A stretch of DNA of 64,000 nucleotides from Akkermansiaceae bacterium (GTDB lineage: Bacteria > Verrucomicrobiota > Verrucomicrobiia > Verrucomicrobiales > Akkermansiaceae), in the NCBI GenBank assembly GCA_031389115.1, contig JANMSI010000135.1:18758-82757 (forward strand). Direction: 5' to 3'. The notes under the pieces were generated by a model. It was not told where the DNA came from. It was given only the letters and a program-made list of their open reading frames with translations, and ran no database searches. Within the stretch, counting starts at the first letter, position 1. Each line of letters opens with the position of its first letter. Below are positions 42,318 to 46,555 of this stretch, one piece after another. Made by a program: the position numbers and the translations under genes.

Positions 42318-43133
42318 ATGAAATCATTCCTCAAAAAGGCCCTGATCGGTACCGCCGGTTTGGCCCTGTTCTCATCCTCCGCCATGGCGGCTTGGACCTT
42401 CAGTGATCCCGATCTTGTCATCGGTTTCCAAGCCCTCGCCGGCCAAGGTTCGACCACCAATCTCTTCTTCAACGCCGGCAACTCATACAACTTCGCGAAC
42501 GGAACCGGTTCCAATGGTCTGCTCGGGAACATCAATGATGACCTCGTAGCCACTTATGGAGCCTCTTGGAACACCCGTACCGATCTCTACTTCGGTATCA
42601 TCGGCAACCGCAGCAACCTGGCTCCGAATTTGGCCCCCGCCACCCCGGGTGTGTCCGATGCCGGTCGCACCGTGTATGTCTCGGCTGCAACGACGACTGT
42701 CGGAGGTGCGGCTCTCCGCCCTCAGTTCGGCAGCAGCACGCTTGGAACGACCGGTACGAACTATGCCGGCCTTCGCACCAATCTCCCGACCTTCACCGAA
42801 ACCGCTTTCGGTGACGGAGTTGCCTCTCTGAACCAAGCCGCGCAACCGGTTGCTTGGAACAACAGTTGGTCCGTCCGCAATCCGACTCCAGGAGCCGCCT
42901 TCGGCACCCTGACCGGTGGCATCCAGCAAAAGTTCGGTCAAGCCGGCACGAACAACATCCTCGACATCCAGCGCATGGTTGCATCGACCCCGTCCGTCTA
43001 TGTGGGATCCTTCATTGTCAGTGACAATGGAGACATCACCGCCATCTCCGCAGTGCCGGAAACGTCGTCCAGCGTCCTAGCGCTCGCCATCGCCACCGCC
43101 GGGACGTTCCGCCGCCGCCGCAACCGGGCATGA
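42318..43133 (+). CDS. PEP-CTERM surface protein
   Basis: Signal peptide ending SAMA; C-terminal AVPETSS-SVLALAIATAGTF-RRRRNRA. Confidence 0.9.
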   Translation: MKSFLKKALIGTAGLALFSSSAMAAWTFSDPDLVIGFQALAGQGSTTNLFFNAGNSYNFANGTGSNGLLGNINDDLVATYGASWNTRTDLYFGIIGNRSNLAPNLAPATPGVSDAGRTVYVSAATTTVGGAALRPQFGSSTLGTTGTNYAGLRTNLPTFTETAFGDGVASLNQAAQPVAWNNSWSVRNPTPGAAFGTLTGGIQQKFGQAGTNNILDIQRMVASTPSVYVGSFIVSDNGDITAISAVPETSSSVLALAIATAGTFRRRRNRA

Positions 43134-43192
43134 TAAGCGACTATTTGCCAACCACTCCAAAACAACCAATCCATCCCCACAACAACACAATT

Positions 43193-44407
43193 ATGAAAAC
43201 GAAATCCATGCTCGTCATGAGCGCCCTCTTCATCTCGGCCACGTTCTCGAACGCCGCTGACACCCAGACCGTTTACAACATCACCGGTGCCACCGCGTTC
43301 CGTGCTGCCGCGAACCTGGCCATCATCGACCTCCTCGGTGGGACCGGCAATGTCCCGTACGCCTACACTGGTGCCAGCCTGGCCGCTTCCAACCGGACGA
43401 TTTTCAAGAAGACCGTCGTCACGAACCTTCCAGCCACTGGCGACACCGCCACCACGATCGTTCGCGCCTCGTGGTCCGGTTCCACCCAGGGCATCCTGGA
43501 TCTGGCCGACCAAACGGTCACCGTGCAGTTCCTCAAGACCACCGTCACCACGACCACCGCCGGCACCGTGAATCCGGGAGCCGCCGGTGATTTCGAAACC
43601 ACCAACGCCCGTTTCGCGTTCTCGGACGTGGACAAACTTCTCTCGGCCCGCCCCGATTCGGCGATCCAAGGCGAAGGCGTCGGCGTCGTGCCGTTCATGT
43701 TTGTCGCCGGTGAAAGCGCTCCCGCCACAGTCTCCAACATGACCGACCAAATCCACAACACCCTCTGGTCCACCGGTTCGGTTCCTGCTTCGTTCATCAC
43801 CGGAAATCCTGCGAACGCCGGTTTCACCATTTTGGCAACGGGCCGTAACAACGGTTCCGGCACCCGTGCCGCCGTGCTTTCCGAAACCCAATACGGTTCA
43901 TTCACCAGCGTGGTGCAGTTCAACCAAACCAACGACGGCACCGGCGTTGGCGGAGCTCTCACCGGCACCCCGACACTGTACGCACCGGGCGGCAATGGCG
44001 GCGGAACATCGAACTCCTTCGTGAAGGACCTCCTCGTCCGCACGTCCAGCCCGACCCACCTCAGCGGCAATTACGCGTTCGTCAGCTATCTGACCATCTC
44101 GGATGCCGTTACGGCCACGGGTTATGATCAAGTCTCCGGCAATATCACCCTTCCCACCGAAGGTGCGAAGCCGATGACCTACAACGGCGTCCGCTACTCG
44201 GAACAGAACGTCAACAACGGGTCCTACACGCTCTGGAGCTATCAGCAGCTCTATCGCGCTGCGGATTCGACTCCTGCCGAAGACACGTTCGCCACGGACT
44301 TGAAGAACTCGATCGACAACGTGCTGGTTCCTACGATCGGCCTTAAGGTCTCGGGCTTGCAAGTCGAGCGCTCCGGTGGTGACGGCGGCCCTGTCGCCCC
44401 GCTGTAA
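43193..44407 (+). CDS. Secreted PstS/DING-like periplasmic-binding-fold protein (start moved to 43193)
   Basis: Signal peptide ending SNA; ITGATAF near the N-terminus, GRNNGSGTR (compare PstS R-S-D-G-S-G-T) and GSYTLWSY. Confidence 0.65.
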   Translation: MKTKSMLVMSALFISATFSNAADTQTVYNITGATAFRAAANLAIIDLLGGTGNVPYAYTGASLAASNRTIFKKTVVTNLPATGDTATTIVRASWSGSTQGILDLADQTVTVQFLKTTVTTTTAGTVNPGAAGDFETTNARFAFSDVDKLLSARPDSAIQGEGVGVVPFMFVAGESAPATVSNMTDQIHNTLWSTGSVPASFITGNPANAGFTILATGRNNGSGTRAAVLSETQYGSFTSVVQFNQTNDGTGVGGALTGTPTLYAPGGNGGGTSNSFVKDLLVRTSSPTHLSGNYAFVSYLTISDAVTATGYDQVSGNITLPTEGAKPMTYNGVRYSEQNVNNGSYTLWSYQQLYRAADSTPAEDTFATDLKNSIDNVLVPTIGLKVSGLQVERSGGDGGPVAPL

Positions 44408-44485
44408 TCTCCGCCTGTCGGACATCCATGGCAGGTGCTGGCGGTCGCGCCGGCACCTGCCTTTTTCTCTCTAAATAATTTCCGT

Positions 44486-45205
44486 ATGAAGCGAATCCAT
44501 GTCTGTCTGGCCGCTACCGGGTTACTGGCTGTCGGAAGCGTCCTCATCCTGCGGCCCTCCGCCATGGAGCGGGTGAACCCGCCCCAGATTGAAAAAACCA
44601 GACCTCTGTCACGAGCCGCGCACCCGTCAGCCGGAGAAACAGCCGCCCGTTCCACCCACCGCGTCGAAATGGCGGTAAATGGAACAACTCCCGGAACGAG
44701 CGTCGCGCACAGCCGGTCAAGGGCGCAATTCACCCGGACCGCAATTCAGTCCGGACCTGCCCGGACATCACTCTCGCCGATCGCGCGGCAACCGATCCTC
44801 CCCGGCGTGCTTCAGGCCAGTAAAGCACCCCGTGGAATCGTTCACGATGCTCCCCTTGCCAGCGCCCAGATTGCTCGGACTCGCATTCCGGGTGGTTCGC
44901 CGCAGGACGCGCTTGGACTCACGTCGAATTTACCGCCAGCCCTGCCGCCTGCGGCGCTCATCGAACTCGACGATCCTGCCGTCGCGCAAGCGGACGCACA
45001 AAGGCGACTCACCGCGATCGCCTCGGATTTCACCGACGCCCTGAACCAATCAGGCCTCGATCCGGCAGATCCCGGCTACCGCCAGCTCTGGGACCGGGAA
45101 CAAGCCAGTGCTGACGCCCGGTTTCGGTCCATGTACGGTGGCCAAGCTTGGATGAATCATCACATCCAAAGCCACCACGCCCAGTCCCGTTCTCCAATGC
45201 AGTGA
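44486..45205 (+). CDS. Hypothetical membrane-anchored or exported protein (start moved to 44486)
   Basis: N-terminal hydrophobic helix, Pro/Ala-rich linker, helical C-terminus (ADARFRSMYGGQAW); lies in-line in the cluster. Confidence 0.6.
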   Translation: MKRIHVCLAATGLLAVGSVLILRPSAMERVNPPQIEKTRPLSRAAHPSAGETAARSTHRVEMAVNGTTPGTSVAHSRSRAQFTRTAIQSGPARTSLSPIARQPILPGVLQASKAPRGIVHDAPLASAQIARTRIPGGSPQDALGLTSNLPPALPPAALIELDDPAVAQADAQRRLTAIASDFTDALNQSGLDPADPGYRQLWDREQASADARFRSMYGGQAWMNHHIQSHHAQSRSPMQ

Positions 45206-45219
45206 CGTCCCGACCATCG

Positions 45220-45285
45220 TGTGACGATCCTGTGACATTACTGTGACAATCAACAATTTGTCCGAGGTCACAATTGCCTTACTTT
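45220..45285 (+). promoter_or_regulatory. Triple TGTGAC direct repeat (11-bp period) followed by TTGTCC-N16-TACTTT promoter
   Basis: TGTGAC at 45220, 45231 and 45242; -35-like 45258-45263; -10-like 45280-45285, the same TACTTT as at rpsT. Confidence 0.72.
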
Positions 45286-45328
45286 CCCGCTCGAACTTCT
45301 CCAACCAATTCCAAAACCATTCACAAAT

Positions 45329-46555
45329 ATGAACTTGTCCCTTCAATCACTCCGTGCCGCTGGCTTCGCGCTGGCGGTTTCCGCTCTCCCTCAGGCCTCC
45401 CAGGCAGCTCCGTTTGTTCTTAACGAGGCAGATCTCCTGCTCGGAGTCCAAGCGGTCGGTGGCACCGGCTCAACGCAAAATCTCTTCTTCAACCTAGGCA
45501 ATACGGTCACGATCAAAAACTCCCCGAACCAAGGGATTGTCGGAACCATCGCCGCCGATCTCGCGGCCACTTACGGTGTGAATTGGTTTGAACGCACGGA
45601 TCTTTACTTCGGTGTTTTCGGGAATCGCAGCAACCTGTCCCCCGCTCTCGAGCCTGGAACGCCTCCGGAGGAACCAGGCAGTACGATTTATTTGTCGATC
45701 CAAACCACGGCAGCAGGTGCCGCTGGCCCGCGTCCACAATTCGGAACTTCCACTCTTGGCAGCGGAGCCACCAGATATGCCGGCATGAAAGGCGCCCTCA
45801 GAGGTACCACTCCAGGTAACACCGAAACATTCACCGCGACGGCAAGCGGCGCCACCATCATGGATCAGGCCATCCACCCGGTTTCGTGGAACAACAGTTG
45901 GACCGTTCGCAATCCTGTTCCAGGCGCGGCTTTCCAGGTTTTCACCGGCGGTATTCAGAACAACTTTGGCAAACCGGTATCCGTCACCGAGGTGCTTGTT
46001 GACGTCCAGCGGATGGTGCCGAACACTCCGACCACTTATATAACCACCGTCGGCATCGACAGCAGCGGCCAGATCCGGCTTTTCAAGGCCGTCACAGCGT
46101 CCGCTTATGACACTTGGATCGCCACCTTTCCCTCCATCACCGCACCTGCCGACAAGCTGATCACAGCGGATCCCGACAAAGATGGTGACACCAACCTTGA
46201 AGAATTCGGCTTTGGCGGAAATCCTTCGAGCGGCTCGGACCAAGGCAGCCGCCAGATCCTGACGGTGGATGCGAATGGCGACTCGCAGAACGACATCACC
46301 CTGACCTTGGAAGTTCGCAGCGGTGCGACGTTCTCGGCTTCCGGCAACGATCTCGTCTCGGCGCCCATCGATGGCGTGACTTACCGCATCGAAGGCAGCA
46401 CGGACCTCGCGACTTGGGACAGTGCGGTGAGTGCCGTGACTCCCACTCTGGGCACCGGCAGTCCCAGCACCGGCTATGTCTTCAGGACGTTCCGCCTAAA
46501 CGCCGGTAACGGCCTCCCCGGAAAAGGTTTCCTCCGCGCCACCGTGACCCAGTGA
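45329..46555 (+). CDS. Secreted protein paralogous to the PEP-CTERM protein at 42318, with a DxDxDG-containing C-terminal domain
   Basis: About 240 aa align by eye with the 42318 protein; then WIATF...ADPDKDGDTNLEEFGFGGNP...YRIEGSTDLATW...FLRATVTQ. Confidence 0.82.
   Translation: MNLSLQSLRAAGFALAVSALPQASQAAPFVLNEADLLLGVQAVGGTGSTQNLFFNLGNTVTIKNSPNQGIVGTIAADLAATYGVNWFERTDLYFGVFGNRSNLSPALEPGTPPEEPGSTIYLSIQTTAAGAAGPRPQFGTSTLGSGATRYAGMKGALRGTTPGNTETFTATASGATIMDQAIHPVSWNNSWTVRNPVPGAAFQVFTGGIQNNFGKPVSVTEVLVDVQRMVPNTPTTYITTVGIDSSGQIRLFKAVTASAYDTWIATFPSITAPADKLITADPDKDGDTNLEEFGFGGNPSSGSDQGSRQILTVDANGDSQNDITLTLEVRSGATFSASGNDLVSAPIDGVTYRIEGSTDLATWDSAVSAVTPTLGTGSPSTGYVFRTFRLNAGNGLPGKGFLRATVTQ

Follow-up and report, generated by a model that had tools for sequence, protein, structure and literature searches.

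Two Versions of One Exported Domain With Different C-Terminal Tails in a Conserved Cassette Beside a TpsA Fiber Locus of Verrucomicrobiales

Proteins A and B and Their Shared Domain

Within a stretch of 64,000 nucleotides of DNA from an Akkermansiaceae bacterium (the window; assembly GCA_031389115.1, contig JANMSI010000135.1), two genes 2.2 kb apart encode exported proteins, here called A and B, which share one domain and end in C-terminal modules that are unrelated to each other. The window lies on contig C75; the Verrucomicrobiales assembly to which it belongs measures 4.25 Mb, is 93% complete, and encodes no copy of the shared domain besides A and B. Protein A (42318–43133, + strand; 271 aa) is composed of a signal peptide (aa 1–24), the shared alpha/beta domain (aa ~25–244), and a PEP-CTERM-type tail (aa 245–271), and protein B (45329–46555, + strand; 408 aa) of a signal peptide (aa 1–26), the shared domain (aa ~27–255), and a C-terminal tail module (aa ~259–408). 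Named relatives of these proteins come from Luteolibacter, Haloferula, and Prosthecobacter, and the family of the source genome also includes small-genome members.

In a BLASTP alignment, residues 5–246 of A match residues 8–255 of B with 47% identity (118/252) and 62% positives (E = 3e-69). The motifs GSTTNLFFNAGN/GSTQNLFFNLGN, RTDLYFG..GNRSNL, RPQFG.STLG, WNNSW.VRNP.PGAAF, and D.QRMV correspond to invariant or nearly invariant columns of the family alignment. An earlier note, made from the letters of the window alone, had stated that A and B align over about 240 aa, and this is borne out by the BLASTP result and by the presence of every motif that it quoted; the alignment that it proposed as a check confirms the homology of the shared domain over 252 aligned aa. 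Its further claim of one extracellular domain common to both proteins is supported by the 47% identity and by export of both, each carrying a Sec-type signal peptide as judged by eye (MKSFLKKALIGTAGLALFSSSAMA before AW and MNLSLQSLRAAGFALAVSALPQASQA before AP). The structure prediction suggested in the same note gave a divided answer, since AlphaFold2 models the shared domain confidently as a mixed alpha/beta fold (predicted local distance difference test, pLDDT, ~85–95; mean for full-length B, 74.7), but a Foldseek search of the B model against the PDB returned nothing at E ≤ 0.001, so that the fold is not assignable to a known structure. Profile searches found no Pfam, NCBIfam, PHROGs, or PDB relative of the shared domain, PDB sequence searches with full-length and tail profiles gave non-significant matches only (MS2 coat protein, antibody heavy chains, and calmodulin loops), and literature searches yielded nothing relevant on the B tail or the A/B family. 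A set of polar residues is kept in both the A and the B clade (R87, D89, N97, Y120, S122, N182, W184, D216, Q218, and R219 in A numbering), and, to judge from the sequences, the two proteins probably share the target that they bind or act on. The domain that these old paralogues have in common is uncatalogued, exported by Sec, ~225 aa long, and of mixed alpha/beta fold.

The Tail of Protein A

The tail of A (43050–43130, + strand) comprises the last 27 aa, AVPETSSSVLALAIATAGTFRRRRNRA, read directly from the sequence, and consists of VPET, a hydrophobic helix of ~15 residues (SSSVLALAIATAGTF), and RRRRNRA at the extreme C-terminus. The description of A as ending in PEP-CTERM, given in the earlier note, therefore holds for the layout and the extreme C-terminal position but not for the motif itself, in which threonine at the third position gives P-E-T in place of Pro-Glu-Pro, and A alone has no match to PF07589 even at E ≤ 10 and none in NCBIfam at E ≤ 0.01. 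The third position is variable among relatives, which carry PEP, PET, PEA, or PEV at the same place in the tail (12, 9, 3, and 3 members of the A clade, respectively), and PF07589 is matched by 17 of the 36 aligned family members scanned, with a best E of 1.9e-5. In the genome as a whole, 28–37 PEP-type tails are found, depending on the stringency of the regular expression, together with three exosortases (PF09721 matches above cutoff), none of which fits a named Xrt subtype. Three small open reading frames (ORFs), two on contig C56 and one on contig C165, end in VPDGG or VPDSG followed by a helix and basic residues; by sequence these endings resemble the VPDSG-CTERM flavor of exosortase signals, and the three exosortases may therefore serve different tail flavors.

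The Tail of Protein B

The tail of B (46103–46552, + strand) begins with a W..F helix, continues with the TSP3-like calcium-loop motif ADPDKDGDTNLEEF, and ends with a beta-rich domain terminating in GFLRATVTQ. Residues ~259–408 of B contain ADPDKDGDTNLEEFGFGGNP, YRIEGSTDLATW, and GKGFLRATVTQ in that order, and the domain of ~150 aa with the pattern DxDxDG...STDL..W...FLR that the earlier note placed at the end of B was found as described. The ADPDKDGDTNLEEF loop resembles a bacterial TSP3 or EF-hand calcium loop (DPDxDG); the motif was seen by eye, as B has no match at E ≤ 10 to PF18884, the bacterial TSP3 repeat, which does match another tail-bearing protein of the genome but away from its tail. 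No model in Pfam or NCBIfam covers the tail of B.

A hidden Markov model (HMM) of the tail matches 26 ORFs in the genome (domain E < 1e-3), 22 of these matches ending ≤40 aa from the C-terminus, and about 22 large, mutually unrelated proteins thus close with the tail. In the eight carriers that were scanned, the passengers include PATR repeats, RCC1 with a cadherin-like domain, a DUF5122 propeller with fn3, a glucose/sorbosone dehydrogenase with LamG, a phytase-like domain with Calx-beta, and PKD, and the tails of all eight are without any Pfam or NCBIfam model. Among 1.84 billion representative proteins, the tail profile recovers 15,835 clusters at E ≤ 1e-3, of which 2,889 remain at E ≤ 1e-10; ~135 of the best 150 matches (~90%) finish at the last residues of the protein, and the tail is present in 59 of 201 sampled genomes of the phylum. 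These proteins share a TSP3-like DxDxDG..N..E loop followed by a beta-rich domain ending in F-x-R-[LV]-x-V, located at the C-terminus of otherwise unrelated exported proteins, and the B tail behaves like a portable C-terminal module.

Two tail sub-variants also occur within the B clade and are mixed on the tree of the passenger domain. The variant found in the window has an extra beta hairpin of ~25 aa and ends in GFLRA.V, and the other is shorter and ends in KLFGRL.V. Since the sub-variants are intermixed on the passenger tree, tails have been replaced by homologous tails even inside the B clade.

Tail Exchange Across the Family

Length and tail type coincide in the first 59 homologues, where all 43 proteins of ≤309 aa end in PEP-CTERM and all 16 proteins of ≥351 aa end in the beta-rich tail, so the occurrence of two different tails on one domain, as proposed from A and B, is an old and maintained difference. 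A profile search enlarged the family to 94 database proteins. In the larger of two trees (104 rows, with B added and two fragments dropped), 64 relatives have PEP-CTERM, 33 the B-type tail, and 7 other endings. In the maximum-likelihood tree of the shared domain built from 60 rows, A groups with PEP-type proteins (a clade of 27) and B with tail-type proteins (a clade of 14), the two clades being separate and well supported, and one further pair of tail-type proteins is nested beside PEP-type proteins. This tree contains three changes of tail label, at least two of them forced by well-supported branches, and the 104-row tree contains about 10, of which at least 4–5 are forced.

The same two forms recur in a distant branch, where proteins of ~258–284 aa carry PEP-CTERM and proteins of ~340–366 aa carry TSP3 followed by ...F[AV]RLxVTP; a few longer proteins in this branch contain repeats of the InlB-B or Ig type and end differently, for example in ...EVYE[IA]P. 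A third architecture is represented by three metagenomic relatives of ~620 aa (P0246–P0248) with Ig-type repeats, which end in ...(L/I)(V/I)EVYE(I/A)P.

Exchange between the two tails is not limited to the A/B domain, as two more passenger families in the genome come in both PEP-CTERM and tail versions. In one, three small PEP-CTERM proteins correspond to an 835-aa tail protein (up to 40% identity over 247 aa), and in the other, a 706-aa PEP-CTERM PATR protein corresponds to tail proteins of 1383 and 837 aa (65% over 470 aa and 39% over 681 aa, respectively). Both tails were never found on one ORF in the genome (0 of the 37 PEP-type ORFs overlap the 26 tail matches).

A Conserved Cassette Downstream of TpsA

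The genes for A and B belong to a four-gene cassette, absent from the earlier note, which lies downstream of a giant fiber protein of the two-partner secretion (TPS) type. In the window the order is TpsA, Sel1, A, PstS-like, Y, and B. The TpsA-type fiber (29759–41326, + strand) is a 3855-aa ORF with a TPS domain and a DUF3739 C-terminus and precedes the cassette in every locus, and a Sel1-repeat protein (41323–42201, + strand; PF08238, E = 2.3e-22), conserved in most cassettes, lies between it and A. The third cassette member is a PstS-like protein with a periplasmic-binding fold (43130–44407, + strand), of which the longest ORF has 425 aa and the probable start is MKTKSML at 43193; it has a GSGTRA motif and a conserved ...R.GGDGGP C-terminus, weak matches to TIGR02136 (E = 2e-4) and PDB 4ecf (E = 0.026), and orthologues in every cassette. 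The fourth member, protein Y (44435–45205, + strand), has ≤256 aa with a hydrophobic N-terminal segment and a probable start of MKRIHV at 44486, and scans of Pfam, NCBIfam, and PHROGs assigned it to no family.

Conservation of the cassette extends to 11 loci, among which three gene orders occur, and the short and long forms of the shared domain lie on the same contig in every locus examined. The order of the window is repeated in four metagenomic loci (L003, L043, L044, and L045) and in a genome of the same family (G032). In another family (G011 and G094) B adjoins A and the two are divergently transcribed, and in Luteolibacter sp. LG18 (L046), a cultured strain, as well as in L047, the order is TpsA-B-A-PstS-like, with Y following in LG18 and the contig of L047 stopping inside the PstS-like gene. 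In a third family, a single protein of 649–941 aa with the shared domain is encoded after the PstS-like gene. The A/B pair is kept across the order, including in cultured strains of Luteolibacter and Haloferula such as Luteolibacter sp. LG18 and Haloferula sp. BvORR071.

Upstream of the cassette, the window encodes TpsB, an ExbB-LamG fusion, TonB, and a Porin_5 protein. The TPS locus has a PstS-like protein on either side, namely the 425-aa cassette member and an upstream 891-aa fusion of PBP_like_2 and OmpA (18587–21265).

Two possible regulatory elements lie within the cassette. Directly after the PstS-like gene, a terminator-like hairpin (44430–44461, + strand; 14 pairs, 11 of them G-C, with a T-rich tail) may attenuate transcription, as suggested by its sequence, and it overlaps the start of the longest ORF of Y, for which reason the true start of Y is probably the MKRIHV codon. 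Between Y and B, three TGTGAC repeats at 11-bp spacing are followed by ACAATC-N6-TTGT (45216–45262). The conserved element (45229–45262, + strand) reads TGTGAC-N5-TGTGACAATC-N6-TTGT and is preceded, at a distance of 11 nt, by a third TGTGAC, and three of the nine copies of TGTGAC in the window lie upstream of B. A related element, GGTGAC-N5-6-GTNACAATC-N5-6-TTGT, precedes the B orthologues of L043 (~8870–8905), L044 (~8890–8925), and L003 (~10958–10992). The GTGAC element is probably a regulator site, and its conservation before B in four loci suggests that B may have its own regulated promoter.

The Adjacent Exosortase Module

An unclassified exosortase (46573–47589, + strand) begins 18 bp downstream of B and matches PF09721 (E = 1.1e-29) and the TIGR04178 signature (56 bits against a cutoff of 23). 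Its stop codon is overlapped by the start of a 232-aa protein in the position of EpsI (47586–48284, + strand), for which Pfam, NCBIfam, and PHROGs scans, EpsI included, gave no family match. In both the window (46573–50304) and L043, the exosortase and this partner occur together with a 672-aa protein that has a Lys/Glu/Ala-rich C-terminus; the orthologue of the partner follows the exosortase in L043, and the L043 homologue of the 672-aa protein has 705 aa and lies on the opposite strand. The three genes form an unclassified exosortase module. The exosortase adjoins the cassette in only 2 of 11 loci, the window and L043, a restriction absent from the earlier note, and its operon-like placement is therefore a lineage-specific adjacency. 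The proposal that it is dedicated to the PET variant of A was rejected as unsupported, given this count and the presence in L044 of a PET-type A without an adjacent exosortase.

Proposed Mechanism and Competing Explanations

The reading that is favored, by a modest degree of confidence, is that A follows the exosortase route and that B owes its placement or retention to its folded tail, acted on by whatever handles the other tail-bearing exoproteins, giving one domain in two attachment states beside the fiber. Both proteins would cross the inner membrane by Sec. The C-terminal helix would then keep A tethered until cleavage at PE(P/T) by one of the three exosortases, which would hand the protein on to its attachment in the envelope or matrix. 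B, which lacks a membrane helix, would be held or placed by its folded tail, the handler presumably being whatever serves the other ~22 tail-bearing exoproteins, so that a single domain, binding or catalytic, would be presented by the cell next to the TpsA fiber in two states of attachment. The idea of two destinations for one extracellular domain, as put forward in the earlier note, is thus partly supported: the shared exported domain, the unrelated tails, the pairs on single contigs, and the portability of the B tail agree with it, but a sorting role of that tail and separate destinations of the two proteins go further than these observations. Several points weigh against the mechanism. The strict co-occurrence of A and B fits a heteromer at a single site equally well; the motif in A is PET and A alone is silent on PF07589; the exosortase is missing beside the cassette in 9 of 11 loci and is thus not demonstrably a dedicated partner; the B tail is connected to no machinery; and the structural model of the tail is weak (pLDDT 49.8 alone and about 50–80 within full-length B).

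A binding or spacer role of the B tail, or a heteromer of A and B at one site, fits the same observations equally well, and the version in which the tail is an ordinary calcium-dependent binding or spacer domain of FN3/Ig-like type rather than an address, with A and B acting together at one place, is judged possible but doubtful. In such a heteromer A could be the membrane or matrix anchor, and the tail of B could grip the TpsA fiber, a glycan, or the PstS-like protein. Folded C-terminal beta-sandwiches of extracellular enzymes are commonly binding modules, the tail opens with a TSP3/EF-hand-like DxDxDG loop whose only PDB echo is the non-significant match to calmodulin loops, and dedicated tail machinery was not found; A and B further accompany each other at every locus, whichever of the three gene orders it has, which suggests that they are needed jointly. 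Against this stand three points: the tail is locked to the very end of the protein in ~90% of the best 150 matches, and ordinary binding modules are usually less strict in position; it and PEP-CTERM exclude each other; and it has been exchanged repeatedly with a recognized sorting signal.

The PET tail of A could alternatively be an unprocessed inner-membrane anchor, with A tethered in the periplasm and B as its soluble periplasmic or secreted counterpart. The failure of A to match PF07589, the variable third motif position in its clade, and the lack of a named subtype for any of the three exosortases would fit such an anchor, but the remainder of the tail is canonical (P-E, ~15 hydrophobic residues, and RRRR at the C-terminus), close relatives with a true PEP do score on PF07589, and an exosortase lies 18 bp downstream of B and is adjacent in L043 too; this explanation is improbable. 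A recent duplication or an assembly artifact, which would make the tail difference accidental and without functional meaning, gains something from the short distance of 2.2 kb between the genes on one contig, yet it is extremely improbable and was rejected, because the copies are merely 47% identical, fall in separate well-supported clades, belong to a conserved cassette, and each have, across many genomes and metagenomes, orthologues that keep the tail type.

The exosortase route for A and tail-mediated placement of B can be extended to a broader, more speculative proposal, which is rather unlikely as it stands. The B-type tail would mark cargo for an as yet undescribed Verrucomicrobiota pathway of sorting or surface attachment, one interchangeable in function with the PEP-CTERM/exosortase system, and the A/B pair would send one domain down both routes, giving the TpsA fiber system the same partner in two envelope layers. 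If this were true, a single tail swap in a cultured carrier would reveal a new pathway.

Significance

One domain with alternative C-terminal anchors is already known, as is PEP-CTERM itself. New are the uncatalogued passenger family, the uncatalogued and phylum-wide tail as a recurrent alternative to PEP-CTERM, and a TPS-linked cassette, present in cultured strains too, in which the two versions form an obligate pair. Across Verrucomicrobiota, a domain without a name in any database forms the end of thousands of exported proteins, and one passenger has switched repeatedly between this domain and a recognized sorting signal, the two tails never occurring together and the two versions standing side by side. 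Comparative arguments of this kind first identified PEP-CTERM, LPXTG variants, and other sorting signals. As the domain is common to A and B, the tails differ, and the pair is kept across the order, the cassette offers a natural test of the uncatalogued tail with a built-in control (the same passenger and the same operon with different tails), and its presence in cultured Luteolibacter and Haloferula makes localization or tail-swap work practical. The main value of the pair is this ready-made experiment on the role of a Verrucomicrobiota tail, and the analysis also defines four conserved genes as an accessory cassette to a giant TPS fiber locus that is widespread.

Comparison With Known Systems

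The upstream genes of the window resemble the phosphate-starvation TPS locus pdtA/pdtB-exbB2-exbD2-tonB4 of Pseudomonas aeruginosa in having a giant TpsA, TpsB, ExbB/TonB, and a porin that are co-directional and lie upstream of the cassette; a counterpart of A, B, or Y has not been demonstrated in P. aeruginosa, and the phosphate connection of the window rests only on the weak PstS-like match. By this analogy, and together with the two PstS-like proteins on the flanks of the TPS locus, the arrangement hints at a link of the cassette to phosphate scavenging or phosphate-starvation biology, as a lead only.

The B tail is comparable to the C-terminal domain of the type IX secretion system (T9SS) of Bacteroidota (Por_Secre_tail, PF18962/TIGR04183). 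Unlike that domain, it has a TSP3-like calcium loop before the beta-rich part; B and nine other tails have no match to PF18962/TIGR04183 at E ≤ 1 to 10, and it is not known to be cleaved or attached or to rely on machinery like that of the T9SS, PorV, Sov, PorU, and others not having been searched for in the genome. The two modules are alike in being folded, beta-rich, locked in position, and borne by many unrelated large exoproteins of one phylum, a likeness that is offered as an analogy only.

With the PEP-CTERM/exosortase system (PF07589 and TIGR02595; PF09721), A shares the signal peptide, the P-E pair, the hydrophobic helix, and the C-terminal arginine cluster, and the genome has three exosortases and roughly 30 PEP-type proteins. 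A departs from it in its PET motif and in not scoring on the HMM by itself, and the adjacent exosortase has no named Xrt subtype and is not conserved beside the cassette.

The closest parallel is found in the "choice-of-anchor" families of NCBIfam (Haft), which are homology domains whose members differ in the anchoring or sorting signal at the C-terminus. The A/B domain matches none of the named choice-of-anchor models and no other model of NCBIfam (E ≤ 0.01) or Pfam, the alternative tail of the pair is not a recognized sorting signal, and, in a further difference, the two versions are kept as obligate neighbors in one cassette. As in those families, one extracellular domain is fused to differing C-terminal modules, PEP-CTERM among them, with repeated exchange, and A and B match the known choice-of-anchor pattern, here with an uncatalogued tail.

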